Shown: in pieces, positions 21,321-54,870 of the stretch
Numbering within the stretch: the first letter of the stretch is position 1
Layout: every line of letters begins with the position of its first letter
Origin: a virus
IMG/VR virus record: IMGVR_UViG_3300022902_000004
Coordinates: 126,268 to 190,267 of that record
Length of the DNA stretch: 64,000 bases
Reading direction: 5' to 3' (one strand)
Program-made: the position numbers and the translations under genes
Notes under the pieces: generated by a model
What the model was told of the DNA's origin: nothing
Seen by the model: only the letters and a program-made list of their open reading frames with translations
Databases searched by the model: none

Positions 21321-21372
21321 TCTGATGCTCCGTTACGATCATAAATATCATGTCGGGTCGCTTTATGAATAT

Positions 21373-22492: not shown

Positions 22493-22504
22493 TTCGTTCT
22501 CCTG

Positions 22505-23466: not shown

Positions 23467-23507
23467 AACCTCCGTTTAGAGATTATATGATGAATGAGCT
23501 GGATGTA

Positions 23508-25027: not shown

Positions 25028-25082
25028 TTGTGCCTCGTATATGTATCACTAAATATCTAATTGCACCCGAAATTACATAAAT

Positions 25083-25110
25083 ATTATACCACACATACAC
25101 GAATATTACA
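25083..25110 (-). promoter_or_regulatory. sigma70-like promoter (TGTAAT-N16-TATAAT with TGG extended -10), member of conserved family
   Basis: Coding-strand sequence ATGTAAT ATTCGTGTATGTGTGG TATAAT. Drives the coupled MKIT gene operon 25027..23508. Confidence 0.55.
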
Positions 25111-25112
25111 TG

Positions 25113-25149
25113 CCAAAGACGAAGGGCTCCCAGATTTCTCCAGGAGCCC
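25113..25149 (-). terminator. hairpin terminator after first MKIT-family gene
   Basis: Minus-strand RNA reads GAAGGGCUCC-loop12-GGAGCCCUUC followed by GUCUUUGG. Confidence 0.5.
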
Positions 25150-25180
25150 TTCAAACGTTTAGCTAACCGAAGCTAGCCAG

Positions 25181-25432
25181 TCACACAGACATTGGGTCAT
25201 CAAGATCGAGACCCTCAGCATTGTAGTCCATCCAGTACAAATCAGAATCGTCGGCCTCAGACTGAATGTAGTTCATTATCTCATCCTTGCTATGACCTGT
25301 TTCATGTTCCGCTTCGGCCCATGGGATTATGCCTGGTGATGGCGCGAGATTGTGGAGCGTTATCCAGAGATCACGACGCGAATGTTTTTGCTCTCTGATG
25401 AGTTTCCTGAGATTTGATTTTGTGATTTTCAT
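25181..25432 (-). CDS. MKIT-tag family protein (putative internal protein)
   Basis: MKITKSNLRKLIRE. Followed by a hairpin terminator. Confidence 0.6.
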   Translation of the reverse strand: MKITKSNLRKLIREQKHSRRDLWITLHNLAPSPGIIPWAEAEHETGHSKDEIMNYIQSEADDSDLYWMDYNAEGLDLDDPMSV

Positions 25433-25464
25433 TGATGTCCCCTATTGTATTTCTAATTATCTGC

Positions 25465-26460
25465 TTAGAATCGAATCACACAAAATTCCTTATCGTTCTG
25501 AAAGCTCCAATCGATTGCCGCTTGATATTTCAATGGGTCGTTGTCATTTTCCTGACCTTTGACTTCGTAAAGCATTGAACCTGAGAGTGATAGGAAGTCT
25601 GGGACATAGGTTCGCTCGACGCCGTTTGGGTCTTTGTATGGGATGCGGATGTCGTGTTTCTTGGTGACTGGCTCGCCCCGAGATACACATTCGTCCAGGA
25701 AACGGGACTCCCACCCGGAGTGCATGTATTCTTCTTGCTGTGTGAACGGGTTGAACTTCCACTCGGTCTTGAATGGCGCCTGCGGCCCGATGACGCCGTC
25801 CTCTAGCAACTGGATGGCACGTTCGCTGTATACTTTTTTCATTTCTGGATTGTTTTGCCACCAACGTTTTGATGCAACTGATTTCTTCTTCTTTACATCC
25901 TGCCTTGCGGCGGTTTTATGGCCGGCAAGTCTTTGCTTCTCACGGTACTCGTCAGTTCTTAGCACCTCAACCCTTTTATCATAATCCTCGTCCCACCTTT
26001 TTTGAGCCGCCTTACTGTAACGCTCTTTTTGCTCAGATGTTCTTACCTTTCCAAAGTTTGGACTGTCGGCTCCTCGTTTTCCATACATTCCATTATTTTT
26101 GCCTTTGTTACTGTGTCCACGAAGATATTCAGGAAACCCGCCCTTCGCCCATTTGAGTTTCGTATTGCAGCCGCACTTGCATACCGGCCAGATGTTGTTA
26201 TGTTCTGTACGAACTTGATATGCCGGCCATTCAATTTTATGCTCTTTTCTTACGTGACGAGCAAGAACATTGTTTGAATTTGCAACAAGCTCGTCGCAAA
26301 TCTTACACTTTATTGTGAACTCGACGACAGGTTTTGCATAAATCTCTTTTGCGATATCCTTATGCCAATAACCAACATGAGCACCGACGGATCTCGGCGT
26401 ATTTCTCAACATCTTGTCGCAGTACTTGCACTTTACTTTTTCTATTTGTTTTTCCATCAT
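25465..26460 (-). CDS. freestanding homing endonuclease-like protein (NUMOD3-like repeats + C-terminal PD-(D/E)xK nuclease motif)
   Basis: Probable start MMEKQIEKVKCKYC at 26460. NUMOD3-like MYGKRGADSPNFGKVRTSEQKERYSK. C-terminal YVPDF...YEVKG is PD-(D/E)xK-like. Inserted between MCP gene and MKIT cluster. Confidence 0.55.
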   Translation of the reverse strand: MMEKQIEKVKCKYCDKMLRNTPRSVGAHVGYWHKDIAKEIYAKPVVEFTIKCKICDELVANSNNVLARHVRKEHKIEWPAYQVRTEHNNIWPVCKCGCNTKLKWAKGGFPEYLRGHSNKGKNNGMYGKRGADSPNFGKVRTSEQKERYSKAAQKRWDEDYDKRVEVLRTDEYREKQRLAGHKTAARQDVKKKKSVASKRWWQNNPEMKKVYSERAIQLLEDGVIGPQAPFKTEWKFNPFTQQEEYMHSGWESRFLDECVSRGEPVTKKHDIRIPYKDPNGVERTYVPDFLSLSGSMLYEVKGQENDNDPLKYQAAIDWSFQNDKEFCVIRF

Positions 26461-26508
26461 ACAATAAATATATAGGAAATGAATGAATTGTATAGGAAAA
26501 AGATGGTT

Positions 26509-26546
26509 AAAAAGGAAAAGGCGCCCTTTGTGGGGGCGCCTTTCCA
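26509..26546 (-). terminator. intrinsic terminator downstream of major capsid gene (GC hairpin GGCGCCC/GGGCGCC + U-tract), palindromic and potentially bidirectional
   Basis: Minus-strand RNA reads GGCGCCCCCACAAAGGGCGCC UUUUCCUUUUU. Preceded by a second AU-rich 8-bp hairpin (26549..26568). Confidence 0.7.
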
Positions 26547-26574
26547 ATCATCTAGTGGTAACTAGATGGTCAAC

Positions 26575-39199: not shown

Positions 39200-42100
39200 C
39201 TATAAAAATTTGACCTGGGCATCATGGCCCTTGGTTGTTGAAATCTCAATGATGTTGTCGACGACGTCTTTCACCGTGTCGACGTGTGATATTATTAAAA
39301 TCAGCCTGAACGTCTTTGTTAAACTCCTGAGCAGAGTTGTACAGGCTTCTACATTTGTCGCGTCGAGAGCACCAAACCCTTCATCAATAATCAGGACATC
39401 AGCTTTTGGAAGACTCGAAACTCGAACCAAAGCCGTACGAATTGCCAAGGATGACATCATTTTTTCCATGCCGCTACAGCACTCGATCACTCGTTTGGAG
39501 TCGCCGTAGTTTAGGATGATGTCCATACCTGCCGAATCGTCCACGGTCAGCTCAACAGTGAAACCGGTAATCCCCTGGAGGATGTTTGCAATCTCGACAT
39601 TGATTACCGGCAACTTACGCTTGACAATCTGGAGCGGGATTCCATTACGACTCAGTGCCTTGCCCAAGAGCGTCAATATTTGAACCTGTTGGTTGTTTTT
39701 CTCGAATTGGATTTTATCTGTTCGAAGGCGCTTCACCTCTGATGTCAACAGGCCGATTCGTTCACTCAGGGTTTGGATTCGTAACTTTGCCTCTTGCAGT
39801 TTTTCAGTTGCAAGCTTCTTCTTAGCCACCAGAATCTTGCGTTCCTTGGCACTTTCAGTTGAGCATAGATTGATTTTCATTCGTGACAACATTGAATTGT
39901 CAACGGCTAAATCTCGCTCGACGTTTGAAATACGACTCTCCAACCCGAGTATTTTCATGCTCAGTTTTGACTTGCTTTGTGCCAATAAGAACAGTTTTTC
40001 ATCATGCTCTTGTTTCTGGGCCAATTTCTCATCGACGTTTTCTTTGAGTAATTTCTTTAGAGATGACTTCAATGCGGCGACTCGTTTCTTCGATGCTAGC
40101 AAATCATCTTTTTTCTCGAGCATGTTCTTTTCGGCTTTCTTGGCGCTGATTATGTACTTGCATTGCGGAAAAGTGTCAGCACAGGGCACATCGCTTAGCT
40201 TTTTTACAGCTCGTTTGTCTGCCCGAAGCTTGGACGACTTTGTTTCAATTTCGCCTGTTGCCACAATGATCCCGTGCTCAGAATCAACAATCGCAACCTT
40301 TTTCTTTTTGAGTTTGGCAAAATCGATGTCCTGAATCTTGGTTTTCATCTCAGTAATTGTGGCATTGATTACGTCACGCTCGAGTGAAGCGACAGACATG
40401 GTTTCCATAAACTCGTCACGATCTTCATTTGCCTTTCTGATTTTCTCAGCCTGATCGTCAATTTCAGTCTGGACATACATTTCTTTTGTTTGTGAGTCCA
40501 ATGCAGAGTTTATGTTGTTCAAAATCCTCGTGATCTTTCCAAGGGAGTCAGATTCGGCAGTACGCTCCGCGATTCTCGCTTTTACCTTTGCCGTCTTATC
40601 AACAATCTTTGCATCGAACTGTTGTTCAGGTGCAGATTTGAGCATTTTCTTTGCGATGGACAAATCTTGCTTGACCAATTCAAATAGCGTGTCAAGGATA
40701 TCGAGCCTCAGGAATTTAGCCAGGATTGATTTTCTTGTTGCAGAACCTTGGTCCACAAAACGATTGATGTCGCCTTGGGATGCCAACGTCGTCAAAAGGA
40801 AGTCGTCCAAGGTTCCAACCAGCCCACGCAATATCTTTTCGGTTTCTCTGCGTTGCTCCTCAGAAATATCCTTCAGGGGTGTTCCTGTTTCATCGGATTC
40901 AAAAAGGTTCAGGTGGGTCACTGCATGGTGATCTCCTTTTTTCGTCGTCTTTTTTACAGTCTGACGCTCTACAAGGTAGTTTTTTCCCTTCTTTGAGATG
41001 AGAGCCTTGGCAACACAATATCCTTTTCTTGCATTCACAATGTGCATGTTCTTCATTGCGCCACGATCTGTACCGTTGAATAATGCGTAAGTTGCTGCAC
41101 CACACAAAGATGATTTTCCTGACCGATTCTTACCAAAAATGCCCGTAATACCGCTTGCGGACTCAAAGTTTACAATGTTTCCTTCACCGTACCCGAATAT
41201 ATTATCAAACTCCATTCGACGGAGAGACCACCGACCGGACGTTGAGTTATCAGCGAGTTTTGCAGACTTCCAAACGCCTGATAAGGTCTTCGCCATCTCA
41301 TTTATTGTTTCATCGTCCAATTTTGCGTTGGCATAGAACTCTTTGATTAGATTGTTTACCGCGTCGAAGCTGTCGAGTTTTATTGTTTCATCAAGGAGTT
41401 CATCTGAAAGTTCTAATGTTGCAGCATCTACCTCTCGTTTGAAAACAATTTCGGTTGGACCGGAGACGCTTTTTATTGCTGCGCGAATTTGTGACATGTC
41501 GGCTTGGGTTGCGGCACTCTGAATCTTGACTCTCACGTGCGCTGACGATGGATAGTCTTCCATTTCAGATTGCAGCTTGTCTAGATCATCGTCGTAATCC
41601 AAAGTCACGAATGGATGCTCATGTTTGATCTCGACATGCTTCACATCAAAATCATCTTTCGATTTGATGTCCCACATTAGGAAACCCTTTCCAGGGGTCT
41701 CGGCGTAGTTTTGTTGAATTGCGCTGCCGCTAAATCTGATCCGACCGGCCTTGTCAAGAATCTGTTGCTTGTGAATGTCACCTAGCATGACGAAATCATA
41801 CCCTTCAAAGAACTTCAAATTGACATCACTTTCAAGAGCCCAGGCGGCATCTGTTTCCGAATTGTGGACGACGCCATGGAACGTCGCAATGTTGATCTTT
41901 CCTTCTTCAGGCTTCACATCCGGCCATCCGGCTTCATCGAAACATGAAAAAACACAAATGTTGCACTCATCATTCATAGGATATGTGCCGGACTTTTTGT
42001 ATAGCTTGATTCTGGGATTGTCGATTGCAGCGAGGATCGGTGAGATTGCATCCTCTCTGTCTGGATTCAAAATAAGGCCGTCATGGTTGCCAAGGGTCAC

Positions 42101-42352
42101 GTGGACCTCTGCTATTTCAGCCAAACCGTTGAACCACCATGTCAAATTTGAAATCAGTTCAGGGGAAATGCCTTGGGTTTTTGAGTGAACGATGTCACCG
42201 GCGATGAAAATAATGTCTGGTTTCAAAGTATGCAACTTTGAAAATGCGTCTTCAAACGCTGTGCGATATTCATCGTGCCTAGAAAGAGAGCGCCAGTGTA
42301 TATCGCTTAAATGACAGATCTTAGTAATGTGACACCTCGAGGTTATTTTCAA
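39200..42352 (-). CDS. fused Mre11-Rad50 (SbcD-SbcC; T4 gp47-gp46 equivalent) recombination nuclease/ATPase
   Basis: N-terminal calcineurin-like phosphoesterase motifs (HLSDIHW, GDIVH, GNHD, TFHG). Then Rad50 Walker A FGKNRSGKSSL, long coiled coils, C-terminal signature/Walker B LIIDEGFGALD and ILIISHVDTV. Confidence 0.8.
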   Translation of the reverse strand: MKITSRCHITKICHLSDIHWRSLSRHDEYRTAFEDAFSKLHTLKPDIIFIAGDIVHSKTQGISPELISNLTWWFNGLAEIAEVHVTLGNHDGLILNPDREDAISPILAAIDNPRIKLYKKSGTYPMNDECNICVFSCFDEAGWPDVKPEEGKINIATFHGVVHNSETDAAWALESDVNLKFFEGYDFVMLGDIHKQQILDKAGRIRFSGSAIQQNYAETPGKGFLMWDIKSKDDFDVKHVEIKHEHPFVTLDYDDDLDKLQSEMEDYPSSAHVRVKIQSAATQADMSQIRAAIKSVSGPTEIVFKREVDAATLELSDELLDETIKLDSFDAVNNLIKEFYANAKLDDETINEMAKTLSGVWKSAKLADNSTSGRWSLRRMEFDNIFGYGEGNIVNFESASGITGIFGKNRSGKSSLCGAATYALFNGTDRGAMKNMHIVNARKGYCVAKALISKKGKNYLVERQTVKKTTKKGDHHAVTHLNLFESDETGTPLKDISEEQRRETEKILRGLVGTLDDFLLTTLASQGDINRFVDQGSATRKSILAKFLRLDILDTLFELVKQDLSIAKKMLKSAPEQQFDAKIVDKTAKVKARIAERTAESDSLGKITRILNNINSALDSQTKEMYVQTEIDDQAEKIRKANEDRDEFMETMSVASLERDVINATITEMKTKIQDIDFAKLKKKKVAIVDSEHGIIVATGEIETKSSKLRADKRAVKKLSDVPCADTFPQCKYIISAKKAEKNMLEKKDDLLASKKRVAALKSSLKKLLKENVDEKLAQKQEHDEKLFLLAQSKSKLSMKILGLESRISNVERDLAVDNSMLSRMKINLCSTESAKERKILVAKKKLATEKLQEAKLRIQTLSERIGLLTSEVKRLRTDKIQFEKNNQQVQILTLLGKALSRNGIPLQIVKRKLPVINVEIANILQGITGFTVELTVDDSAGMDIILNYGDSKRVIECCSGMEKMMSSLAIRTALVRVSSLPKADVLIIDEGFGALDATNVEACTTLLRSLTKTFRLILIISHVDTVKDVVDNIIEISTTKGHDAQVKFL

Positions 42353-43130
42353 AAATCATAACATACGTCCAATTCTTGTTATTACAAAAACCTATTGCAG
42401 CTCTTTTTTTTGCATCTACTTTTTCTGGGTCCCTTATAAACCCTTTGATTTCTTCAATGCATGTACTTCCGGAACAGCTTTCTACTAGTATATCCGGTAT
42501 GTATATATGTTCGGATCCGTCATGACTATATTTTATTTTTATGCCGTGCGACGTTGTAAACTTAACAACTTCATCACATGATTCAAGAAATCGCAATCTG
42601 CGCAGTTCGTATGACGACATATAATACATTCGTTCACCAGCTTTCTTCGAATAAAACCAGCCTCTTGCTGTGTTTTTCATTTGACCGGATTTTATAAAAA
42701 TCTTCTCAATTATTTCATCAAATTCTTTTTCGCTCTTTTTTGACCAATGGTTTTCTTTTATTAGTTGCCTTGTTTTATTCGAAACTGTTTTCCCGGTGCA
42801 GGCACTGCTATGCTTGTCTTTTCTGTCGTCAGTCCAGTACTCTTTTGCGTGTTTTTTTGTCCACCTAAACGCCTTACCGGTTTCATTGATTTGTTTCATG
42901 ACCCGACTGCCATTACTCGAAATAGCTTTTCGAATTTTCTTAGTTTCTTCTTTTGGTTTTTTTGACCAGTGATTTTCTTTAATTTTTTTGCTCACTTCTT
43001 TCTTCTTTTCACTTGTCATGACATCACCATACAATCGCCGATATTCGGCAACCCCCATATTATGTTTAAACTTCAAGTGAGAAGGAGAAATAATTCCAAA
43101 TTTTTTGTGGCATAGCTGACATTCTATCAT
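42321..43130 (-). CDS. freestanding homing endonuclease-like protein (zinc finger + ENHWSKK repeats + PD-(D/E)xK-like C-domain)
   Basis: Probable start MIECQLCHKKFG at 43130 (SD GAGGT). C-terminal YIPDILVE...CIEEIKG. 3' end overlaps the sbcCD-like start. Inserted between primase and Mre11-Rad50 genes. Confidence 0.5.
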   Translation of the reverse strand: MIECQLCHKKFGIISPSHLKFKHNMGVAEYRRLYGDVMTSEKKKEVSKKIKENHWSKKPKEETKKIRKAISSNGSRVMKQINETGKAFRWTKKHAKEYWTDDRKDKHSSACTGKTVSNKTRQLIKENHWSKKSEKEFDEIIEKIFIKSGQMKNTARGWFYSKKAGERMYYMSSYELRRLRFLESCDEVVKFTTSHGIKIKYSHDGSEHIYIPDILVESCSGSTCIEEIKGFIRDPEKVDAKKRAAIGFCNNKNWTYVMIFENNLEVSHY

Positions 43131-43185
43131 TTTAGATACCTCGCAGATATAAGTATCTTGACATCGGCCATGTGGCAAATTTTTG

Positions 43186-44742: not shown

Positions 44743-45741
44743 TTATGACATAATTTTTAGTTCGCGTAAATCGTGTTCTGTTATGAATCGATATTCGTTG
44801 ATCCCTTCAGACTCACAGAATTTTCGGGATGCTAATGCTTTTTGTTGAACTTTTTCTGTGTTTATAAACATTGACGGTTTCACTTCCCATATTTGTCTTG
44901 TTCCGTCACTAAATTCAACCAAAAAATCAGGAATATACCACCTTTTTTCCCCATTGTAACGATATGGAATTTTAATTGTTTCATATCCATATGATGCTAC
45001 ATTATCATCATTGTCGAGAAAGTTCATTGTTATTAGTTCCCAACCGGAACGATAGAACATTTTCTTGCCTGTTTTTGGTGAAACGTGTTCACCGGCTTGG
45101 CGATTTTTTCCGTACGGCTTTATTTTGCCAGCTAACATCATTTCTGCACGTTTTAGCGACATAATTGCCTTAGATTCAACAGTATGGCACTTTCCATACA
45201 TCGGATTGTTTTTTCCCTTCGAGCGATTTGAATTACGTTGCTCGGCGCTCATTTTCTTTTTTGATTCTTCGCTATGCTTTCGACCTGTCCATGGGTGAAC
45301 ATATGTCCCTTCTTTTTGCTTTTTACGAATTGTACGACTAATATTTGCACGGGCTTCTGGCGTCATACTTTTCTCATGCCAAATCGCATAAGTTTCTGGG
45401 TTTTTTGATTTCCATGATCCGTAACATTGAGGTTTGCAAAAGCTTCCATGAATTTCATTTGGGGCAGCCTGAGACGTCCATCGCTCAATTAGTTTTCCGC
45501 AATCTCTGCAGTTTGCTTTTGTTATTGCTGCACCGTGACCGCCGAAGCCGTCAGACTTACGATGACCGTATGTACATTTTTTTGAACATCGATGTATTTT
45601 TGCTCTTACGTATGCAGTTCTATATTTTCCAGCACGCTCAAACGTCGAACCACAAATATCACATTTGATGACTACAACCGTTGGTGGATTACCAGGAGCG
45701 CCCGGTCTTTTTCTTGGAAGTTGTTTTATTTCTATGATCAT
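44743..45741 (-). CDS. freestanding homing endonuclease-like protein (NUMOD3-like repeats + PD-(D/E)xK)
   Basis: HPWTGRKHSEESKKKMSAEQR and NNPMYGKCHTVESKAIMS are NUMOD3-like. C-terminal WYIPDFLVEF...IWEVKP. Paralogous architecture to 25465..26460. Confidence 0.55.
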   Translation of the reverse strand: MIIEIKQLPRKRPGAPGNPPTVVVIKCDICGSTFERAGKYRTAYVRAKIHRCSKKCTYGHRKSDGFGGHGAAITKANCRDCGKLIERWTSQAAPNEIHGSFCKPQCYGSWKSKNPETYAIWHEKSMTPEARANISRTIRKKQKEGTYVHPWTGRKHSEESKKKMSAEQRNSNRSKGKNNPMYGKCHTVESKAIMSLKRAEMMLAGKIKPYGKNRQAGEHVSPKTGKKMFYRSGWELITMNFLDNDDNVASYGYETIKIPYRYNGEKRWYIPDFLVEFSDGTRQIWEVKPSMFINTEKVQQKALASRKFCESEGINEYRFITEHDLRELKIMS

Positions 45742-45781
45742 GTTTCTAAGTATAGCGTCATCTCAGAAAATGTATAGGAAA

Positions 45782-48277
45782 TTAATAATCGAGGCGGACT
45801 CTTACCACGTATCGGTCGCCGTCTCGCTTAATTGCAGGTTGTGCGAAGTTGGCACGACCTACAACGTTTAGGTTCTCATCATGGAATTGCATTCCCGTCA
45901 GGTATACAAATGACTTCGCCGTTTCATTGGGGTAATCACTTGGAACCATGTCCTGGTATGTCGGGTTCGGCGATGAGTTGACGAAACCCTTGTCGACAGG
46001 GACGTTGACTTCAAGGACGTGGATATTTCGCTGGCCTTCAAATGAGATTTCCCAGGCATCAGAACCAAACATAGGAAGATTCGGAGATTTGACAACGAGG
46101 ATTCCCTCTTCATAAATCACATTTCCAACCGACGCCCAGGTTGCATGTGAGCCCTCCGAATCAGCTCGGTACAGGTTACCATACCCATCGTCTTTCAGGG
46201 TTATCTGGACCCTCCCGTTCGACCCTGTTACAGCCAAATCCTTCAACACAATCGATTTTGGTTTCAATTGGTCGCCATAGAACATGTTTGACACATCAAA
46301 GAACACAACTTCATTCGAACTCGGGTCCTTTGTTCGCTGGAGAATTGTCAGAATGTTCGCGGGAGAAACAGCAGGATCCTCAGGGGTCGGACCGATTAGC
46401 GGAGCAACAATAGATCCAGAGATAAGTTTTGCCGTCCCTTGCTGGTCATCAAATTTTGGAAGAAATTCTGTGCTGACCAGATTTTCCAACGTAATCAATG
46501 ACAGGTCAATATTTCCAAAATCATTTCTAAATTTGTCCAGAATCGAACCGCTGGTAGCTTTGTCCAAGTTTCCTGAAAGCAACATTTTGAAATTCGGTGT
46601 GAACCTTCCGTTATCGCATGGAAGAATCGACAAGTTTCGTTTTCTATGGCTGCCGGATTCGTAGATCCAGTAGTTTGCAGATTTCGGTGTGATCGTCGTC
46701 GAATCAATTTGTGATGTTTCAAGACCGAGGTGCCGCGGTGTGGTTCCACGAACAAACTCACGAGTGAAGTTTTGAATGTTTAGCTCATGACCTCCAACAC
46801 CAAATGACATCGCTACGTTGAATGGATCGTTTGTCGTTCCAGTCGTATAGAAGAATGGAGTTTGATTCACATATCGAGGTTGGACTGCTTTGACGAAGAA
46901 TGGTGGCACATAGAATAACAACCCATCATTCGCAGAGCTTCCAGACAATTTTTGATCCGTGCCGGTCACATTACCATGAATGTAGTAATCACTAAATTCG
47001 GCACCTTTCATCGATGATGTCAGTATTTGTTGGTTGCTTCGGTAATTGTCGTAAATCTTGAGATCGTGAACCTCAGCATTCAACGGGTGACTGAACGATG
47101 AATCCGTCGGGTCTGTAGCACCATCATCGTCGTTGAAGTTCAGAACTCCGAATTGCCTGTGAGCTGTTGGGTTGAAATATCCTGCGATCGGTTTTGTGTC
47201 GTAGTTGCTTCCATCATAGAAGTTGCCGATGAACAAAGCATCAGCATCATGGTACTCATTCGATGTTACAATCGGTTGCATGACTGAAGCGCTTGTGATT
47301 GGGAATGTTCCCTTTTCCTGGCCGTCGATTACAAACGATCCGGTGCCACGAGCAACATTCTCACCTCCCCAACGGACAGCAATATGGTGCCACTTGTTGA
47401 AGGATAATGAGTTGTCGTCTGACATGAATAAGAAGCCCGGGTCAGCAGTCGCTCCTGGTGCAGTAACTGAATCGCCTGAGATTGTTATTTCGCTGGGTTT
47501 GATTTCTGCCGACTGGCTCAATTGGAGCAACAAACGGAAACCATCAGGCTTCGCCGTCTTCGATGAAATAGATGAACCGGTCACCAAACTAATCGCGTAT
47601 GACGACGACATATGGAAAATCGTGCCGGGTCGGTACTCATCCCCTACGTTCTCAGTTGTGTATCTCGGGTTGACATAGAAATCAAATGTGAAACTGGAAC
47701 TTGGGGCGTAAACATTTGTATCCTCAAGCGCGACCGTTCCAGTTCCTGCCGGGTAAATCAGGCATGTGTTCTCGGGAAGGTATGAGGATGTCACGAAATT
47801 CAGCGAATGATAGTTTGAATATGCCCATTGCAAAGTTGGGTATGCATGCCTGTAGAATGGAAACAATGATGTCTTCGTTACTCGTTTGCGCTGGAAATTC
47901 TTATCAATCTTGATTCCAGGCTCAAATCGTATGACATTTTGCTTCTTGTCGAATTGTGATGAACTTACAAGTCCGTGTACCTTGGAAATATATGCATCGA
48001 TAGCGCCGAAAGCGTTTATAGAGTTAGAAGCAGCCTCGACTGCGGCAGCTCTCAGGTTTTCTACTTGTTCATCATTTGCTGGATCAGCATTCAACCCAAC
48101 GTCAGAAAACACATCCTTGAACGCAGATGAGCCATCGGCGAATAAAGGAAGGGCACCGGTGATTCCAGAAGGGGTGACATGTACCATTGCCAGCGACGCA
48201 GATTTGTAGGTGCGCGCAGGTTCGGCTCGTAACGAATACCTTTCTACATTTTCTTTCGTGATCTTGATAATTGACAT
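45782..48277 (-). CDS. large structural protein (baseplate/tail fiber module, 831 aa)
   Basis: Long ORF, Ser/Thr/Gly/Asn-rich beta-type composition typical of baseplate wedge or fiber proteins. Confidence 0.5.
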   Translation of the reverse strand: MSIIKITKENVERYSLRAEPARTYKSASLAMVHVTPSGITGALPLFADGSSAFKDVFSDVGLNADPANDEQVENLRAAAVEAASNSINAFGAIDAYISKVHGLVSSSQFDKKQNVIRFEPGIKIDKNFQRKRVTKTSLFPFYRHAYPTLQWAYSNYHSLNFVTSSYLPENTCLIYPAGTGTVALEDTNVYAPSSSFTFDFYVNPRYTTENVGDEYRPGTIFHMSSSYAISLVTGSSISSKTAKPDGFRLLLQLSQSAEIKPSEITISGDSVTAPGATADPGFLFMSDDNSLSFNKWHHIAVRWGGENVARGTGSFVIDGQEKGTFPITSASVMQPIVTSNEYHDADALFIGNFYDGSNYDTKPIAGYFNPTAHRQFGVLNFNDDDGATDPTDSSFSHPLNAEVHDLKIYDNYRSNQQILTSSMKGAEFSDYYIHGNVTGTDQKLSGSSANDGLLFYVPPFFVKAVQPRYVNQTPFFYTTGTTNDPFNVAMSFGVGGHELNIQNFTREFVRGTTPRHLGLETSQIDSTTITPKSANYWIYESGSHRKRNLSILPCDNGRFTPNFKMLLSGNLDKATSGSILDKFRNDFGNIDLSLITLENLVSTEFLPKFDDQQGTAKLISGSIVAPLIGPTPEDPAVSPANILTILQRTKDPSSNEVVFFDVSNMFYGDQLKPKSIVLKDLAVTGSNGRVQITLKDDGYGNLYRADSEGSHATWASVGNVIYEEGILVVKSPNLPMFGSDAWEISFEGQRNIHVLEVNVPVDKGFVNSSPNPTYQDMVPSDYPNETAKSFVYLTGMQFHDENLNVVGRANFAQPAIKRDGDRYVVRVRLDY

Positions 48278-48343
48278 ATACAGTTCCGTCGGTCAGGCAC
48301 ACTACAACGTGTAATCCTAATTATCGACGGGCGCAAAGTAAAC

Positions 48344-48589
48344 TCAATCTACATCACCAACCAATTGTTTTCGTTGTGCATGTGACAAGAAAAGAATCCG
48401 ATTTGCTAGAATATAGCACTCGGTGCAACCCTCGCCTAGGGCGAATGTAATGCAGTGCATGATGTCGTCGTCGTTGACATTGAAGTCATCTAAGACGATA
48501 TGTAAGCAACACCCGGCAGCGTTACGGTTGTATGCAGCTTCAACGCCGGCATATATTTTGTGATCAATTACAAGCTTATTTTCGTTCAT
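48344..48589 (-). CDS. hypothetical Cys-rich small protein
   Basis: Probable start MNENKLVIDH (48589, SD GGAG). Part of the early-gene island. Confidence 0.3.
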   Translation of the reverse strand: MNENKLVIDHKIYAGVEAAYNRNAAGCCLHIVLDDFNVNDDDIMHCITFALGEGCTECYILANRILFLSHAQRKQLVGDVD

Positions 48590-48857
48590 CGAGGAACTCC
48601 GACACTTTCTTGTTCCATACAACAACTGCTGGCCACCAATTATAGCCTGGATCGGGTACGTGGTAAACGACCTGCCCAATAGCGACAGTCCAACCGTCGG
48701 GTACACGCATAACATGAGGCGGCGTCGGTCCTGCGGAGATGCGGAAATTCCTGGCACCGACCCATTTCTCTTCAGCTAACGCTGCCCAGGTCATGCCGTC
48801 TAGATACTCACGTCTTCCGAGATCGCGGGTTTCAAGAGCTTCCATTTTATCTTTCAT
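48576..48857 (-). CDS. hypothetical protein
   Basis: Probable start MKDKMEALETRD at 48857. Trp-rich. Confidence 0.3.
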   Translation of the reverse strand: MKDKMEALETRDLGRREYLDGMTWAALAEEKWVGARNFRISAGPTPPHVMRVPDGWTVAIGQVVYHVPDPGYNWWPAVVVWNKKVSEFLDERK

Positions 48858-49752
48858 GCTGATCCTCATCCCACATGTATCGCGGGTCATCAGCGAAATT
48901 CTTGTACAATGTGGCGCCACCGGCGACCAACCCAAATACGTCCAGATCGAACTCAGCCTTTCCCTTTGTCATGGAAAACTGGCCAGGCTTCCCTTTCTCA
49001 TAGTCGGCGACCTTGCGATAAATGTCAACCGGAGGAACCCATTTGAACGGAATGTGTGTGGTGCAGTGCTCGCCTGCATTGTAATACGGCACTCGCTGGA
49101 TCGGATCATCAGGATCATCCAAAATGATGTCAGGATGGGCAGCCAAAATCTCCGCTGCTTTCTTGAGATCATATCGACCTTCGGTGAATGAACCATTCAT
49201 GTAGTCGTAGTGACGACCTGCCGGTAATGGTAAACCCTTTGCATCAAAAATGAGGTGATTGTAATTGTATTCCTCGATCAAAATCAACTTTTTGCCTTTC
49301 TCAATCGCAGCAAACGGTTTCTCACACTCACAAGCACTCAATTTGTCATAAACGTCCATGTACCCATAGCCGACTGACTGAACGATATCGAGATATTCCT
49401 GGGTGACAAGCTTGAAAATAGTATGGTTACCGTCACGCGTGGTGAAGTAGCTGCGCGACATTCGGAGCTGACCTTGACCTCGCAGGATTGCATCGAGCTC
49501 TGATTTCAAACAGATCCCTTCTGACATTTCAACATCATACTTCTTGCGCTGGGATTCATCCTGTAGGTTCACCAGAGATTCATCTTCGGCTCGTGATGCC
49601 ATTCGACACACAACGAAACCCAGATCGTTGTCTGGAAGAGGCAGAAATTCAATGTTGCGGGATGTGACCCTTGTAACCTTACTCCAGTTTCGTTGTGCGT
49701 TTTTCATCCTAACCCTCCCTGGCACCCAATGATTTCCTTGAGCACAGCCCAC
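48847..49752 (-). CDS. hypothetical protein (301 aa)
   Basis: Dominant-strand ORF in the early-gene island. No motif recognized. Confidence 0.45.
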   Translation of the reverse strand: MGCAQGNHWVPGRVRMKNAQRNWSKVTRVTSRNIEFLPLPDNDLGFVVCRMASRAEDESLVNLQDESQRKKYDVEMSEGICLKSELDAILRGQGQLRMSRSYFTTRDGNHTIFKLVTQEYLDIVQSVGYGYMDVYDKLSACECEKPFAAIEKGKKLILIEEYNYNHLIFDAKGLPLPAGRHYDYMNGSFTEGRYDLKKAAEILAAHPDIILDDPDDPIQRVPYYNAGEHCTTHIPFKWVPPVDIYRKVADYEKGKPGQFSMTKGKAEFDLDVFGLVAGGATLYKNFADDPRYMWDEDQHER

Positions 49753-49970
49753 GGGATTTCTGCTGTTACCGCCTGGAATCCGGCGTAACCTTGTCCGCTC
49801 GTCTCACCTAAAGCGCTAAGGCCGAGGTCACCACACCAGACTTCGATGTTCTCTGGTCCTTCAATGTCGAAGCCAGGCTGACCTGACCGGATCGTGATCT
49901 CCCAGCCCTGACAATGCCAGCGGGAAATTCCGTACTCGTCAGTTTTCCAAGTTTTTTCTTCGTGTGTCAT
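49704..49970 (-). CDS. hypothetical protein
   Basis: 88-aa ORF directly downstream of promoter 49992..50019. SD GGGGGTGA. Confidence 0.4.
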   Translation of the reverse strand: MTHEEKTWKTDEYGISRWHCQGWEITIRSGQPGFDIEGPENIEVWCGDLGLSALGETSGQGYAGFQAVTAEIPWAVLKEIIGCQGGLG

Positions 49971-49991
49971 GCTTCACCCCCGTACACATCA

Positions 49992-50019
49992 ATTATACCA
50001 CGATATGATGACTCTTACA
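49992..50019 (-). promoter_or_regulatory. sigma70-like promoter family member (TGTAAG-N16-TATAAT)
   Basis: Coding-strand sequence CGTGTAAG AGTCATCATATCGTGG TATAAT, 20 nt before the SD of 49704..49970. Confidence 0.55.
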
Positions 50020-50491
50020 CGATTCGGCTGGAGTTATTTGTCTCCATTTTGTCTGGTTCGAAACCTGGGATGCGAATCTTATATGTTGATGCCTGCCATG
50101 CTGACTCGTCATGACCGTACCACATCCATCCTGCCCTGGCATTATGCGGCGCTACATTGGCACGCTGATAAACAAGACCTTCACGGTTCAGTCGCATCAA
50201 TGCCTTGTGAACATCTTTTTCATATGCTTCAAGCTTGATCGCTAGCCCCTCTTTCGTCACACGGGGCATAAAATGATGGACTTCGAATGGGTCATCCTTC
50301 GTTTTGCTTTTGACAACCCATTCTCGAATTTTTGCTTGTACTACTTCCTTGACCTCTTCGTAGCAATCTCGTTTCTTTCGCCGGATGTGAACCTTTTTAC
50401 GCTTATGGTTTCCGCCACCTGAGAGTCTCCCGGCGGGATGCATTGGGAGCTCACGCCTATCCGGACTATTACTTGAATACTTTCCGTGCAT
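50015..50491 (-). CDS. hypothetical basic protein, possible winged-helix DNA-binding (LMRLNREGLV)
   Basis: 158 aa with a K/R-rich N-terminus. ATGA overlap with the upstream gene. Confidence 0.4.
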   Translation of the reverse strand: MHGKYSSNSPDRRELPMHPAGRLSGGGNHKRKKVHIRRKKRDCYEEVKEVVQAKIREWVVKSKTKDDPFEVHHFMPRVTKEGLAIKLEAYEKDVHKALMRLNREGLVYQRANVAPHNARAGWMWYGHDESAWQASTYKIRIPGFEPDKMETNNSSRIV

Positions 50492-50829
50492 TACACATTC
50501 TCCTTGACATATGCGAACACAAGTTCCTTCTCGTCTGGCGTCAGTTTCTTCAGCGCTTGCGACAAGGCAACATGTTTTAGTTGTCCCGAGTCCAGGACTC
50601 CTTTTAGATATGTCGCCGGGACGTTTTGGTCAGTGATGCACTGAATCGCAGTGCTGTACACCTTCACTTCCCTAATCGCAAAAGAGGCTTCGTAAGGGCC
50701 ACCCATCGCTTCATGCTTCCAGCCAGATTTGCGGATAACATCGGCGTCCTCGTAGTTTAGAAAATAACCTACTGTTTTGCTGCTTCGCCCTTCACAATCG
50801 GCGGCGGCCTTTAGCTCGAAAACTTTCAT
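50491..50829 (-). CDS. hypothetical protein
   Basis: 112-aa ORF, translationally coupled to its neighbours. Confidence 0.4.
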   Translation of the reverse strand: MKVFELKAAADCEGRSSKTVGYFLNYEDADVIRKSGWKHEAMGGPYEASFAIREVKVYSTAIQCITDQNVPATYLKGVLDSGQLKHVALSQALKKLTPDEKELVFAYVKENV

Positions 50830-51533
50830 TTCTTACCTTCCTGGACGTGAATTAACACATCAAGCAATCCGCGCTGGTTGCGGAGGATGATTTTGAGGTT
50901 CTCATACGCCGGGTATTGACGTGGGAACTTTCGGCGGGCATGCCGAATCATTGGGAAGAACCACGTGTCCAGCTCACCGACGTACTTTTTCTGCTTGGGA
51001 ACGTCGAAAACGCCCTGCATCGTTTGGAGATTGTGGGCACGGTCAGCCAATTTCACCAGGCTGGCGATTGGATCCTCACTCATCTCACTGAAATACGAAT
51101 CGTATGTCTTGACAAGACCGGCTGATTTCTTCGAAAGGTGCCAGACTGCAGTAGCAACTCGCTCGCCGAACTTTGTCTCAAGATCGTTTCGAGTGAAACG
51201 TTCGGAGTGATCTTCCAGCACGTCATGAAGAATCGCCGCTGCCAGCGTATCCTCAGGGAACATAAAATTCGCCTCGAGGGTTGTTAATAGCCGGGTCACC
51301 GAAAGCTGGTGATGAAACTTAGGAGTCAGTCCATCCTTACGGGTTCCGCATTCAAGGGCACGGACCAGCTCCAACGCCTCGAGTGCCTTGTAATAACCCT
51401 TACCGTCAAGCCAGCCTCGCATGGTGGAAAGCTGCTTACGATGACGAACCTCAATCTCTGACGGTTCATGACATGCTGGTAACTGTTCAATGGTTTTCAT
51501 AGGCACCTCTAGTCGTTCAAAACGTGCAAGCAA
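50826..51533 (-). CDS. RelA/SpoT-type HD-domain hydrolase (small alarmone hydrolase-like, putative (p)ppGpp/ppApp pyrophosphohydrolase)
   Basis: FHHQLSVTRL ... AAILHDVLEDHSERFTRNDLETKFGERVATAVWHLSKK ... KLADRAHNLQTM match the Rel/SpoT hydrolase signature (H..H, HDxxED, FG..VA.LV, KLADRLHNMRT). Confidence 0.75.
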   Translation of the reverse strand: MLARFERLEVPMKTIEQLPACHEPSEIEVRHRKQLSTMRGWLDGKGYYKALEALELVRALECGTRKDGLTPKFHHQLSVTRLLTTLEANFMFPEDTLAAAILHDVLEDHSERFTRNDLETKFGERVATAVWHLSKKSAGLVKTYDSYFSEMSEDPIASLVKLADRAHNLQTMQGVFDVPKQKKYVGELDTWFFPMIRHARRKFPRQYPAYENLKIILRNQRGLLDVLIHVQEGKK

Positions 51534-51763
51534 ATGCCAGTTTCCTCGTTCTTGTATTTCGTTCCGCGGATTTCATTCATGTGCTCGACATATCCGGTGA
51601 ATTGGAACATCTTCTTTTCACCAGTGTGATGACTCACAACAATCGGCTCGTTGGTCCATGAGTAGAAATTGCCTGGCCAACGAAGATCAGATGCCTCAGC
51701 GACCAACAGCTTATCTGCTGAGTGCCAGCTCATGGTATGTGTGCTAATCTCTTCAAGAAACAT
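51509..51763 (-). CDS. hypothetical protein
   Basis: 84-aa ORF. Start ambiguous (M1 or M11). Confidence 0.3.
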   Translation of the reverse strand: MFLEEISTHTMSWHSADKLLVAEASDLRWPGNFYSWTNEPIVVSHHTGEKKMFQFTGYVEHMNEIRGTKYKNEETGICLHVLND

Positions 51764-51896
51764 GGTGTTGTCCCTGGTCGTATGTTGTGCTGCCTGGTAC
51801 CTTAGTATGCATTGAAATCATTCGGAGCGTACACAGGTCATTCTGGGGTCCTTCATGTTCATTCGTAAGCATCTGGTTTCCCCTGGTTACATAAGA

Positions 51897-51924
51897 ATTA
51901 TATCACGTTTTTCGGACTCTTACA
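51897..51924 (-). promoter_or_regulatory. sigma70-like promoter family member (TGTAAG-N16-TATAAT)
   Basis: Coding-strand sequence CGTGTAAG AGTCCGAAAAACGTGA TATAAT. Confidence 0.5.
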
Positions 51925-52141
51925 CGTTATACACGACATATTTCCAAGACGGGAAACAAACATATCCTGAGTCGCATAGCACCTGGGCCGTGGTTGTTTC
52001 ATAACTGTACCCGCCATGACTAGACAGCCTTGTCCCAGTCTTATGAACTGCAATGAAAAGGCCGAACCCACAATGCTCTGCGGTGCTGCGTGTCATGACA
52101 GCAACCAAATCACCCTTCTTCATGCTCACCTTTCGATTCAT
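51920..52141 (-). CDS. small hypothetical protein
   Basis: Likely start MKKGDLVAVM (SD AAGGTGA). Directly downstream of promoter 52152..52179. Confidence 0.3.
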   Translation of the reverse strand: MNRKVSMKKGDLVAVMTRSTAEHCGFGLFIAVHKTGTRLSSHGGYSYETTTAQVLCDSGYVCFPSWKYVVYNV

Positions 52142-52151
52142 GGTACAATAG

Positions 52152-52179
52152 TACTATATCACGACGGAAGGAAGATTAC
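52152..52179 (-). promoter_or_regulatory. sigma70-like promoter family member (TGTAAT-N16-TATAGT)
   Basis: Coding-strand sequence CGTGTAAT CTTCCTTCCGTCGTGA TATAGT. First promoter after structural gene 52191..53480. Confidence 0.5.
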
Positions 52180-52190
52180 ACGAAAATACC

Positions 52191-53480
52191 CTAGAAGTCC
52201 ATACGAATTCTGAACGTCACGTCTTTCTCATCATTCTTCTCGATGGGACGTGAAACCTTCGCAACGGCAAGTAGATTACCGAACTCGTCGTGAAGACCAA
52301 CCGTCGTCGGCATTGTAAATGTTCGCTGGACGTCTTCCTGCCCACTGTCGACAACGCGGATTCGACCGGTTGAGTCTGCGAAGGTTGGGTTCGTTGAGTA
52401 ATTGAACTCATCCGCGGTTGCACGACAGAAAACCAGTGTGCTGTTGATGTTAGTGCTATTCTGGAACGTTGCTGCCGTCAGGGTTCCGGATTGGAAACGA
52501 GCGTTGGCAACGTGATCAACAATATCGTCAATTGAGGCTGATACAAGGAAGTCCGGGATGAACTTTGCCAAGTCGTTGCCAGCTCCTGAGCCTGTCGTTC
52601 CTAGGACGATTTTACCGGCGGCAACGGATGCACCGTTGATTGTCGCTGCTGTGGACATGGCGTCAATTGTGCCAGACATTTTTTGTGAGCCTGAGAACAC
52701 CTTCGCCATGTCCAGTACAATCATTCCTGCGTCGTAGAAGATCAAACCGGCGTTGATGTTGGTGTTGGCTGCGTTCTTGATAGCGCCGACGCCACCGCCG
52801 AATGTTCGACGTTGGTTTGTACTAGCACCAATGTCGGTGAAGATACCGGAGCCTGAAACTGACGTGTGATTGATGTTGTCGCGGCCGTACCCGATCAGAG
52901 ATGTGTCTTCGCCATGGTCAGCAACCGACGCACTCTGGAACAATCGTACCGCAAAGGTTTCTCGCTTGATTCCATCTCGAGTGAAGAGTCGCTTGAAGTT
53001 GAGGAATAGTGCATTGTCGATGCGATTGCCGGTCGTATCGGTGCCCGGGGTCGTCTTGATTTGGAATGGCGAGAAGAATGCTTGGTCGGCGTCGCCGAGC
53101 AATGACGCCGCAAACTGCCTATAAACGTCCACCTTCTCGCGCATCATCAAACTTTGTGATTGAAACAGCAACTTTCCAGCCGAATCCTCACCGGTTTTTG
53201 CGTCCTGCACTGTAGAACCGCTATACCATAAACCAACGGTCATGTCCATAACCGGGTTGGCAGTTTGCAACGTAAAGTCTTGGTCGTAAACTGTTTGGAA
53301 TAACGAACTTGTCACTCCCGGGCCGATGCCTCCCGTTACAAAAATCTGGTACGCACGGCGAGTGGTGCTTCCTGATACGTCTTCCTGGATTACATCAACG
53401 AGTTGATGCAAAACAGACCGAGAGACCTTGATGTCCTCAGGTGAAATTCTTTTGAAGCTTCCGCCAACTACTTTTGCCAT
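52191..53480 (-). CDS. structural protein (baseplate/tail fiber module, 429 aa)
   Basis: Gly/Ser/Thr/Asn-rich. SD GAGAGA. Same operon as the large structural genes. Confidence 0.5.
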   Translation of the reverse strand: MAKVVGGSFKRISPEDIKVSRSVLHQLVDVIQEDVSGSTTRRAYQIFVTGGIGPGVTSSLFQTVYDQDFTLQTANPVMDMTVGLWYSGSTVQDAKTGEDSAGKLLFQSQSLMMREKVDVYRQFAASLLGDADQAFFSPFQIKTTPGTDTTGNRIDNALFLNFKRLFTRDGIKRETFAVRLFQSASVADHGEDTSLIGYGRDNINHTSVSGSGIFTDIGASTNQRRTFGGGVGAIKNAANTNINAGLIFYDAGMIVLDMAKVFSGSQKMSGTIDAMSTAATINGASVAAGKIVLGTTGSGAGNDLAKFIPDFLVSASIDDIVDHVANARFQSGTLTAATFQNSTNINSTLVFCRATADEFNYSTNPTFADSTGRIRVVDSGQEDVQRTFTMPTTVGLHDEFGNLLAVAKVSRPIEKNDEKDVTFRIRMDF

Positions 53481-53495
53481 GGTTTATATCTCTCG

Positions 53496-54185
53496 TTATT
53501 TGGTAATCGTAACACTAAATTCTTTTCGAAGACCTGATTGGTCGCCGACCACCGCTACGACTGTGTTGATTGTTGTACCGTCGCCATAAACACTGAACAT
53601 TGTGTCATCCAGTGACGTCCGGGTTTGTAAGTCGAAACTTGTTTGCGCGCCATTCTTACTTGACGTTGACTTCCTAACAAGGTTGTAACTTGCGATTCTT
53701 GTGATTGCTTCAATCTGCAGCGGGCTCGAACCTGGTATAGTCAGGAACCGATCTGGCACGAAGACGGAGAACGTCACGTCCGATGTTCCATCTGGAATCT
53801 TCGTCTCAGAATCGATTCGTTGTTCGACCTTTACGTTTCTCGTTTTGTCGTTGTTTCTTGTGAATGCAATCGTATTGTCTGTTAGTCCGGTGGAACCTGC
53901 AATCGACAGTGTTGGAAGGCGGATAATCGTTGGGTCAGGAAGTGTCAGTAGGCGATTTTTTAGTGCCAAATTACCTTGCGTTTGTGCTTCGAAGATAGGC
54001 GTGTTCTTGGTGATTTTCTCTTTGCCCACCGTTCTTCCAAACTTTTGAATGACTGTGTAGTCGACTTCATCGTCCGCTAGCGAAAAGAAAGCGATTTTGA
54101 AACTGCCGTTGTTGTCGGCTAATTTCCGGCGACCCGTGTCCGTTAGAACCGCGTCGATGATTATGTTGTTTGTAGAATTGTCCAA
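53496..54185 (-). CDS. structural protein (baseplate module, 229 aa)
   Basis: TTG start 10 nt after the GIY-YIG HEG stop. Beta-rich composition. Confidence 0.45.
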   Translation of the reverse strand: MDNSTNNIIIDAVLTDTGRRKLADNNGSFKIAFFSLADDEVDYTVIQKFGRTVGKEKITKNTPIFEAQTQGNLALKNRLLTLPDPTIIRLPTLSIAGSTGLTDNTIAFTRNNDKTRNVKVEQRIDSETKIPDGTSDVTFSVFVPDRFLTIPGSSPLQIEAITRIASYNLVRKSTSSKNGAQTSFDLQTRTSLDDTMFSVYGDGTTINTVVAVVGDQSGLRKEFSVTITK

Positions 54186-54195
54186 AAAACCGATA

Positions 54196-54870
54196 TCACA
54201 CCTCCAGTGACGTATAACGCCACATGCACTTTTTATGCGTTGCTCTGTAACCTTTACAACATGCTAAAATGTTGTGGTCTTGACCACCAACGTGTTTTGC
54301 AGCATGTTGTGCCGATTCAAACCTTTGAATCTCTTTACCGGCCAAATCGAGTTGAGTTACCGGAGTTACCTTTCTTATTCTTTTTCGTAATGCAGCCGAT
54401 ATCTTCGCTCGGGCAGCCTGTGATTGCGGAGTCCCAAATGGTCGGCCACCATTACCAGGCAGGTCTGCGGCAAACAATCCTTTTGAAATTGCAGCGCAGT
54501 GTGCCTTTGATAGTTTCTTCCCCATTCGCGATTCGCTCATCTTCTTTTTTGTTTCTTCAGTGTGACGATATCCAAGCAGTCCGTCGCCGGCCAGCGTCAT
54601 GTTGTACCCACCATGATCAAGGTGTGTTTTTTCTTTTGCAATCCAAAACTTCTCTCGTTCGCGAAGAAGAGCTGTTTCACAAATCTCCAGGCACTCAACA
54701 TCAAAACTTGCTTCCCCGTATTTCCGGATTGCCTTTGATAAGACCGCTGTTGATTTCTTCCTTCGTGACGCTACAATATGCAATTTCCACCGGTCTTCGA
54801 TAGTCATCGTCGTCAACCCTACATATTGCCGATTGTTTTTGCAATTGGTAATTTTGTAGATGTTTCCCAC
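54196..54870 (-). CDS. GIY-YIG homing endonuclease (Seg-like) with NUMOD3 and NUMOD1 modules
   Basis: GNIYKITNCKNNRQYVGLTT (GIY-X10-YVG), R/E catalytic positions. NUMOD3-like GYRHTEETKKKMSESR. C-terminal NUMOD1-like FESAQHAAKHVGGQDHNILACCKGYRATHKKCMWRY. GTG start with SD AGGAGA. Confidence 0.8.
   Translation of the reverse strand: MGNIYKITNCKNNRQYVGLTTMTIEDRWKLHIVASRRKKSTAVLSKAIRKYGEASFDVECLEICETALLREREKFWIAKEKTHLDHGGYNMTLAGDGLLGYRHTEETKKKMSESRMGKKLSKAHCAAISKGLFAADLPGNGGRPFGTPQSQAARAKISAALRKRIRKVTPVTQLDLAGKEIQRFESAQHAAKHVGGQDHNILACCKGYRATHKKCMWRYTSLEV

Follow-up and report, generated by a model that had tools for sequence, protein, structure and literature searches.

A probable lineage-specific accessory island with repeated promoter-like sequences and an alarmone hydrolase homolog at a conserved gene junction of a distant T4-like marine phage

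In an uncultured, very distant T4-like marine myovirus of the virulent type, a run of small genes lies between two large genes that are neighbors in related phages, raising the question of what this block is, how it came to be there, and how it would be expressed. The DNA analyzed was a stretch of 64,000 nucleotides (nt), positions 126,268 to 190,267 of IMG/VR record IMGVR_UViG_3300022902_000004, referred to here as the window. The block covers 3913 nt (48278-52190, minus strand throughout) between the stop codon of g429, a conserved core gene encoding 429 amino acids (aa; 52191-53480, minus strand), and the start of g831 (831 aa; 45782-48277, minus strand). Our findings suggested that it is probably a lineage-specific accessory island, that is, a small hyperplastic region at a recurrent insertion hotspot, organized as promoter-headed cassettes with sigma-70-like promoters, whose cargo is exchanged by recombination and includes an alarmone hydrolase.

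The island contained nine credible open reading frames (ORFs) of 67-286 aa, with Shine-Dalgarno (SD) sequences and with three intergenic gaps between them. In coding direction these were a 67-aa SH3/KOW-like small protein (51920-52123, starting MKKGDLVAV, with the longest ORF reaching 52141), an 84-aa gene (51509-51763), a 224-aa HD_4 hydrolase that formed the conserved anchor of the island (50826-51500), a 112-aa gene (50491-50829), a basic 158-aa ORFan with a good SD sequence (50015-50491, AAGGAG), an acidic 88-aa ORF with an SD sequence (49704-49970), a 286-aa protein of a large uncharacterized family (48847-49707), a 93-aa gene (48576-48857), and an 80-aa gene (48344-48586), all on the minus strand. 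A promoter-like motif occurred three times on the same strand, as P1 (CGTGTAATCTTCCTTCCGTCGTGATATAGT, 52153-52182), P2 (CGTGTAAGAGTCCGAAAAACGTGATATAAT, 51897-51926), and P3 (CGTGTAAGAGTCATCATATCGTGGTATAAT, 49992-50021). P2 was followed by a conserved leader of about 135 nt (51764-51896), and g831 was preceded by a 66-nt leader (48278-48343). The initial annotation had counted about ten small ORFs; the block and nine of its ORFs stood, while the tenth, of 38 codons (51756-51872), is probably part of the non-coding P2 leader. The basic, Cys-rich, and Trp-rich small proteins that it described were also found (isoelectric point of 9.9 for the 158-aa protein; five Cys, spaced CC..C..C..C, in the 80-aa protein; five and six Trp in the 88- and 93-aa proteins). 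The GC content at third codon positions was 52% in the island vs 47% in core genes.

The block was an insertion. A scan of IMG/VR with the 429-aa g429 protein returned 287 relatives; 80 of these, with identities of 56-77%, were retained, and the 79 having both g429 and g831 provided the junction counts given here. By tblastn, the gene order g922-g1323-g592-g229-g429-g831-RuvC-primase-Mre11/Rad50 was conserved, with g831 present in all relatives directly after g429. The gap between these two genes had a median of 24 nt, vs 3913 nt in the window; it was ≤100 nt in 56 relatives, 100-500 nt in 7, and >500 nt in 16, with a maximum of 2287 nt, making the window insert the largest seen at this junction. 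The island ORFs had no match in the 79 relatives' loci, even at an E value of 0.1, and none within ±10 kb. Core-gene conservation of these ORFs among relatives had been named as the outcome that would contradict an insertion between large genes, and the relatives showed the opposite. Because the 16 relatives with more than 500 nt held unrelated cargo (homing endonucleases, small Cys-rich ORFs, and others), the g429-g831 junction represented a recurrent insertion site. Relatives without the island had a 28-30-nt spacer before g831 containing only the SD sequence, while the 66-nt g831 leader was new and found only in island-bearing phages.

One relative with 77% identity, L005, carried an unrelated cargo of 1.24 kb together with the same promoter architecture (CGTGTAATCACTCTCCCAACATGGTATAAT) 8 nt past the g429 stop, the only match to the relaxed motif in 1.44 Mb of relatives' loci. 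Because L005 shares a promoter at this junction, P1 may predate the split of the lineages, and this would fit an island ancestral to the group and deleted in most relatives, the more so as recombination of the type mediated by early-promoter stem-loop (PeSL) elements is reversible (PMC2839356). We nevertheless regard an ancestral island as very unlikely. The tight junction of 5-100 nt in 56 of the 79 relatives extended across the whole range of 56-77% identity and included L006, L007, L008, and L010, relatives of the same closeness as L005; island genes were missing from all of the relatives' loci; the 16 other inserts were mutually unrelated; and one or a few insertions give a more parsimonious account than many independent clean deletions.

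In the clade closest to the window phage, the island was mosaic. The contigs of this clade (L085/L086 and L087/L088) were reached through hydrolase homologs (94% identity in L085 and 86% in L087); their g429 and g831 flanks were 91-95% identical to those of the window, and they were the only clade besides the window phage with island ORFs at the junction. In blastn comparisons with L085 and L087, g429 and P1 were conserved down to position 52126. There followed a first variable block, comprising one 67-aa ORF in the window vs 1.3-1.7 kb with 6-7 paralogs in the relatives. At position 51926, the very first base of P2, homology returned and then extended across the leader, the 84-aa gene, and the hydrolase as far as 50827-50832. 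The second variable block measured 1983 nt in the window, where it held the 112- and 158-aa genes, P3, and the 88- and 286-aa genes, and 37 nt in L087; L085 had different ORFs there, among them a copy of the 112-aa gene with 73% identity. Beyond this block, the 93- and 80-aa genes and g831 were conserved again. Across the clade, both promoters (P1 and P2) were retained along with the leader, the 84-aa gene, and the hydrolase, the cargo on either side was swapped, and the breakpoints coincided with gene ends and with the base at which P2 begins. Such a pattern would be expected if recombination, acting where genes meet and at the repeated promoter sequence, added and removed cargo.

The repeated sequence was a 30-nt motif, CGTGTAA-N12-CGTGnTATAnT, which reads as a -35-like GTGTAA separated by a 17-nt spacer from an extended -10 element. 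The string CGTGNTATANT occurred exactly three times in the 64 kb (49992, 51897, and 52153), each time on the minus strand and in an intergenic gap of the island, against a chance expectation of 0.22; three or more copies appeared in none of 100 shuffles. A repeat finder independently grouped the three sites as one 39-nt family, and no copy of the motif lay inside or adjoining the large flanking genes, so the three conserved promoters proposed for the block, with none in the flanks, were borne out as a sequence repeat. P1 starts 9 nt past the g429 stop and was conserved in L085 and L087; P2 was identical or had one change in these two relatives; P3 lay inside a segment unique to the window phage. 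P2 and P3 had their first 12 nt in common (CGTGTAAGAGTC), and the last sense codon and stop of the upstream ORF (the 67-aa and 158-aa ORFs, respectively) coincided in each case with the GTG TAA of the -35 element.

With the full motif (CRTGTAA-N12-YGTGNTATANT) at 0-1 mismatch, the window held five copies. The two outside the island (21373-21402 and 25083-25112) sat in a second, larger lineage-specific region (16929-26574) with about 25 ORFs absent from relatives, and all five copies were therefore located in lineage-specific inserts. The distance from the capsid gene to the homolog of the gene at 15759-16928 was 0.9-4.7 kb in 30 relatives vs 9.6 kb in the window. A 360-aa ORF beside the capsid gene was considered as an anchor for this comparison and proved a poor one, being a mobile endonuclease-like gene. 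A 229-aa ORF in the same region (21396-22085) was about 30% identical to the N-terminal ~80 residues of capsid-protein homologs, indicating a partial paralog. The copy at 25083-25112 had a strong double hairpin and a T-run directly upstream (folding z-score of -5.56 for 25040-25180).

The motif was also found well beyond the window phage. A metagenome scan with CGTGTAA-N12-CGTGNTATAAT matched at least 113 stretches, and among the matches listed several contigs had 2-9 copies on a single strand. An SD sequence and an ORF of ≥40 aa starting within 150 nt accompanied 87% of 109 motif sites vs 49% of control positions, with a median distance from motif to ORF start of 32 nt among the matches listed. 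The metagenome copies showed additional conservation, with G preferred in CGTGGTATAAT and with AtatATGT after the -10 element. In the contigs L204/L247 (Ga0307989_1000322), L200, L211, and L239, 3-9 same-strand copies were spaced 0.4-3 kb apart, and in L211 and L239 a copy directly followed a hydrolase homolog of 60-67% identity.

A different motif marked the core genes. ATA[CT]TTA had 19 matches on the minus strand vs 3 on the plus strand, and 14 of the 19 were ≤70 nt upstream of gene starts (examples on the minus strand at 28500, 30291, 31762, 13774, 6653, 54923, and 45753). It preceded core genes, including those for capsid and sheath, as well as both homing-endonuclease genes, and was absent from the island. 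By analogy with T4's TATAAATA, it is plausibly a late promoter. The 66-nt g831 leader held a late-like variant, GATAATTAGG, within a CCGTCG...CGACGG hairpin, and the P2 leader contained CATACTAAGG, one mismatch off the late-like motif. Because the late-like motif was absent from the island and the CGTGTAA-type motif was present there, the island appeared to carry a separate, sigma-70-like class of promoter.

The hydrolase was placed in a family with confidence, in agreement with its initial annotation as a Rel/SpoT-type enzyme. It scored 51.8 bits against PF13328 (HD_4; cut-off of 27.2) and 29.2 against PF01966 (cut-off of 22), matched phrog_15275 at 5e-35, and had an NCBIfam match to TIGR00691 (spoT_relA) that was local to the hydrolase region. 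The best solved relatives were SpoT (7qps), bacterial small alarmone hydrolases (SAHs; 7qoc, 6yvc, and 6z3n), and Mesh1, and the HDxxED and DRxHN motifs aligned with these structures, LHDVLED and KLADRAHNL facing LHDVIED and KLADRYHNM of SpoT (7qps). Residues H92, D93, E96, D153, R154, and N157 were invariant in 39 homologs. The protein is stand-alone, with 224 aa and HD_4/HD domains only (homologs of 195-288 aa), and judged by its sequence it has every feature of the SAH type. Homologs of 57-72% identity came mostly from very large phage contigs (402-536 kb), and the isolated phages with homologs were jumbo myoviruses (32-40% identity). Stand-alone phage SAHs from PVP-SE1 and SSU5 neutralized all toxSAS toxins tested (PMC7229694) and were also used in a further study (PMC9712102), which makes a counter-defense or anti-stringent role plausible for the island hydrolase. 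Like PbcSpo of Salmonella phage PVP-SE1 and PaSpo of SSU5 (Jimmy et al. 2020), it is a single-domain protein of about 200 aa with intact motifs, encoded by a phage of the lytic kind; unlike them, it has proteins of jumbo phages as its closest isolate relatives (32-40% identity), so the likeness is one of domain and motifs.

A reading of the island as three expression units would account for this arrangement. P1 would drive the SH3/KOW-like small protein; transcription from P2 would pass through the conserved leader into four genes (84-aa, hydrolase, 112-aa, and 158-aa); and P3 would drive the 88-, 286-, 93-, and 80-aa genes. With an extended -10 element (TGnTATAAT) and a conserved CGTGTAA at -35, host RNA polymerase would need no modification to read the three promoters, whose use would not depend on the late-gene program. 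The hydrolase most likely would degrade either (p)ppGpp/(p)ppApp-type alarmones of the host or what toxic alarmone synthetases produce, and removal of alarmones would keep the infected cell productive or disarm a toxSAS-type defense.

Several observations weigh against this reading. The -10 TGnTATAAT equals the consensus extended -10, but the -35 GTGTAA fits TTGACA at only 3 of 6 positions, and a generic sigma-70 scan missed P1-P3 because the -35 was too weak. Folding z-scores of P1, P2, and P3 were +1.37, +0.22, and -1.58, with no significant stem-loop. Candidate intrinsic terminators in the window numbered 11 vs 13.3 expected, with none in the intergenic gaps of the island; without terminators, island transcription would enter g831, late transcripts would cross the island, and late read-through into it from upstream is likely. 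The early firing and activity of P1-P3 are predictions from their nucleotide sequence. The host-takeover or counter-defense role put forward in the initial annotation is plausible and draws on one gene of the nine. Finally, in jumbo-phage contigs of about 0.5 Mb, hydrolase homologs of about 67% identity adjoined MazG, NUDIX, and a second HD_4 gene, a context that fits nucleotide or alarmone metabolism as well as counter-defense.

Since the likeness of P1-P3 to sigma-70 promoters comes mainly through the -10 element, CGTGTAA could instead be an activator box. The promoters would then be of a middle type, with a phage activator binding at -36 to -30 and expression following the first early wave, much as the MotA box binds its activator in T4. 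The -35 region was conserved beyond what sigma-70 would need given an extended -10, and it matched TTGACA at only half of the positions; CGTGTAA ... CGTGGTA had the look of a direct repeat with 19-nt spacing; and the initially transcribed AtatATGT was conserved across the metagenome copies. An extended -10 TGnTATAAT alone, however, suffices for sigma-70 initiation in many bacteria, and no MotA or AsiA homolog was seen within the 64-kb window, the rest of the genome not having been searched. On balance, middle-type promoters seemed rather unlikely.

The gene context of the hydrolase homologs bears on its role as well. The hydrolase could be an auxiliary metabolic gene that lowers (p)ppGpp and blocks the stringent response, with the other ORFs being neutral or selfish cargo. 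The MazG and NUDIX neighborhood points in this direction, as do the frequency of the family in jumbo myoviruses and the fact that eight of the nine ORFs had no detectable function, two of them being counted as ORFans. We consider this alternative possible, if short of likely. That phage SAHs neutralize toxSAS experimentally (PMC7229694) argues against a purely metabolic role, although for the same reason the metabolic and counter-defense roles are not mutually exclusive. Neutral cargo would also sit poorly with purifying selection on the 84-aa gene (ratio of nonsynonymous to synonymous substitution rates, dN/dS, of 0.15-0.23) and with the conserved motifs of the 286-aa family, whose 456 representatives argue against junk.

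The preferred reading, an accessory island with exchangeable cassettes, has a close counterpart in T4-type phages. In their hyperplastic regions, ORFans are bordered by repeated early-promoter PeSLs, through which recombination brings about insertions, deletions, and replacements (Arbiol et al. 2010, PMC2839356; Comeau et al. 2014, PMC4122927). The island likewise has variable, mostly unknown genes clustered between conserved core blocks. As with PeSLs, a sigma-70-like intergenic motif is repeated directly upstream of ORFans and contains the stop of the upstream gene, the motif is concentrated in variable regions between core blocks, breakpoints coincide with it, and a few cassettes are located within the virion-gene module. 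Unlike PeSLs, P1-P3 have no stem-loop or terminator, only the copy at 25083-25112 following hairpins, and the -35 is CGTGTAA where the consensus is TTGACA. The window phage also belongs to a very distant T4-like group, with a capsid protein of ≤48% identity to isolates, unlike the PeSL hosts. Because distribution and breakpoints agree while the stem-loop is missing, the island is PeSL-like in behavior and not a PeSL by definition.

Two further comparisons place the island among known inserts. A lambdoid moron is a gene that lies as an insert among late genes and is flanked by a promoter and a terminator of its own. The island resembles a moron in carrying promoter-headed cargo between two genes adjacent in relatives; it differs in having several genes per insert, in belonging to a virulent-type T4-like rather than a temperate phage, and in having no terminators, terminator-like sites occurring at chance level. 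The inserts between T4 genes 5 and 6 (segC, 5.1, 5.3, and 5.4) similarly place accessory ORFs and a homing endonuclease among large virion-module genes, and the window has GIY-YIG and other endonucleases beside the island. The T4 inserts have no dedicated triple promoter array, and the island flanks could be equated with no T4 baseplate gene.

The eight ORFs besides the hydrolase had no functional match in Pfam, PHROGs, or NCBIfam, the 112-aa gene having only a weak match to phrog_5370 (E value of 0.0012), and PADLOC recognized nothing among the island proteins; any function for them would be conjectural. The 67-aa protein was 43% identical to one L087 copy, and its family had no match in Pfam, PHROGs, or the PDB. 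These divergent paralogs of about 70 aa (MKxGDLVxV...GL...VL..G) occurred as one copy in the window and as tandem arrays of 6-7 in the closest relatives (7895-9603 in L085 and 8286-9603 in L087). The 84-aa gene was 74-90% identical in L085 and L087. It lay directly upstream of the hydrolase in the closest clade and was missing upstream of more distant hydrolase homologs, so it is no general partner of the hydrolase beyond this clade. The 112-aa gene matched a 135-aa ORF of L085 at the 73% identity given above and was absent in L087.

The 158-aa ORF found only itself among 5.8 billion protein clusters and had no relatives in the IMG/VR scan and no match in Pfam, NCBIfam, PHROGs, or the PDB. Its single-sequence model, with a predicted local distance difference test (pLDDT) score of 53, was unusable, and the winged-helix-like fold that had been suggested for this protein found no support. 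No homolog of the 88-aa ORF appeared in any of the relatives' loci examined. The 93-aa gene was 90% identical in L087 and L088, directly after the hydrolase there, and the 80-aa gene was 94-96% identical in L087 and L088 and 51% in L085. A word-indexed search had made the 286-aa protein appear to be an ORFan, a status overturned by a full HMMER scan that found 456 representative clusters, with members sitting in phage-type arrays of small ORFs. Its AlphaFold model was confident (pLDDT of 92.5) and had no structural neighbor in the PDB or BFVD; the protein had no match in isolated phages by tblastn and no relatives in the IMG/VR scan.

The P2 leader was conserved more strongly than the coding sequence downstream of it, with a mean column identity of 95% and a dS or dS-equivalent of 0.13 vs 0.77 in the adjoining 84-aa gene. 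The 38-codon ORF is probably not a gene, given a dN/dS of 0.84-0.92 and a GTG start in L085. A riboswitch or other structured RNA was considered for the leader and found no support, as there was no Rfam match, a folding z-score of +0.2, and one compensatory pair among the three sequences.

The flanking genes had been described as baseplate or fiber genes, a description that the searches did not uphold. Neither g429 nor g831 had a PHROG match or a Pfam match above cut-off (Laminin_G_3 fell just under it for g831), profiles of the flanks built from 25-30 relatives had no PDB sequence match, and g831 gave no match in tblastn. No similarity was found between g429 and T4 gp8 or gp11 or between g831 and gp10 (hhalign probabilities of about 0.1), nor by BLASTP between the neighboring giant proteins and T4 gp6 or gp7. 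The flank homologs in Microcystis phage Mel-JY01 were all annotated as hypothetical. The two flanking proteins had a C-terminal domain of about 90 aa in common (45785-46045 and 52194-52469; 26% identity, E value of 4e-4), ending R.R.D[FY] and present in 2-4 copies in each genome of Mel-JY01, RM378, and the immuto phages.

Other proteins encoded in the window were a Gp23-type major capsid protein, a portal and a large terminase of T4 type, a primase, and a RuvC-like resolvase. The major capsid protein was ≤48% identical to that of any isolate; the best identity, 48%, involved an uncultured 484-kb phage, the Flavobacterium 'immuto' phages, Mel-JY01, and RM378. In megablast against INPHARED, the DNA of 45000-54500 had no isolate match. 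The same phage was present on at least 12 metagenome contigs, two of them being contigs of 184.5 kb (ENA) and 136 kb (JGI). In the window, no tRNA genes were detected. The tail sheath was represented by two adjacent giant paralogs of 1027 and 1055 aa (7450-13727), each with its sheath domain at the C terminus only. Mre11 (Metallophos) and Rad50 (SMC_N), encoded in T4 by the two separate genes 46 and 47, were fused in one 1050-aa protein (39200-42352), and the fusion was kept in relatives. Homing-endonuclease-like genes of the GIY-YIG/NUMOD3 and TnsA-like kinds numbered at least four (54196-54870, 44743-45741, 25465-26547, and ~42340-43185), and all were variably present across relatives.

A bolder proposal is that the locus serves counter-defense, with the anchor of P2, leader, 84-aa gene, and hydrolase disarming toxSAS or CapRel, the exchangeable cargo consisting of new effectors, and CGTGTAA-N12-CGTGGTATAAT acting as a portable element. 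We hold this to be unlikely. If true, the 286-aa family and the SH3/KOW-like array of 1-7 copies would be among new anti-defense or takeover effectors, and CGTGTAA-N12-CGTGGTATAAT would be a promoter and recombination module for the trading of cassettes by marine phages.

As an accessory island, the locus represents an ordinary route by which T4-like phages gain accessory genes, and it does not overturn the current understanding of these phages. It provides a clean comparative example of accessory-gene acquisition and exchange at a fixed core junction in distant T4-like marine phages. With occurrences in at least 113 metagenome stretches, the motif could help to locate accessory cassettes in contigs of uncultured phages. 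The alarmone hydrolase, the family of 456 clusters, and the copy-variable paralog family are candidates for anti-defense or takeover screens, and the most interesting leads are the 286-aa family without a known fold, the variable SH3-like array, the unusually well conserved leader, and the value of the promoter motif for marking cassettes in marine phage contigs.

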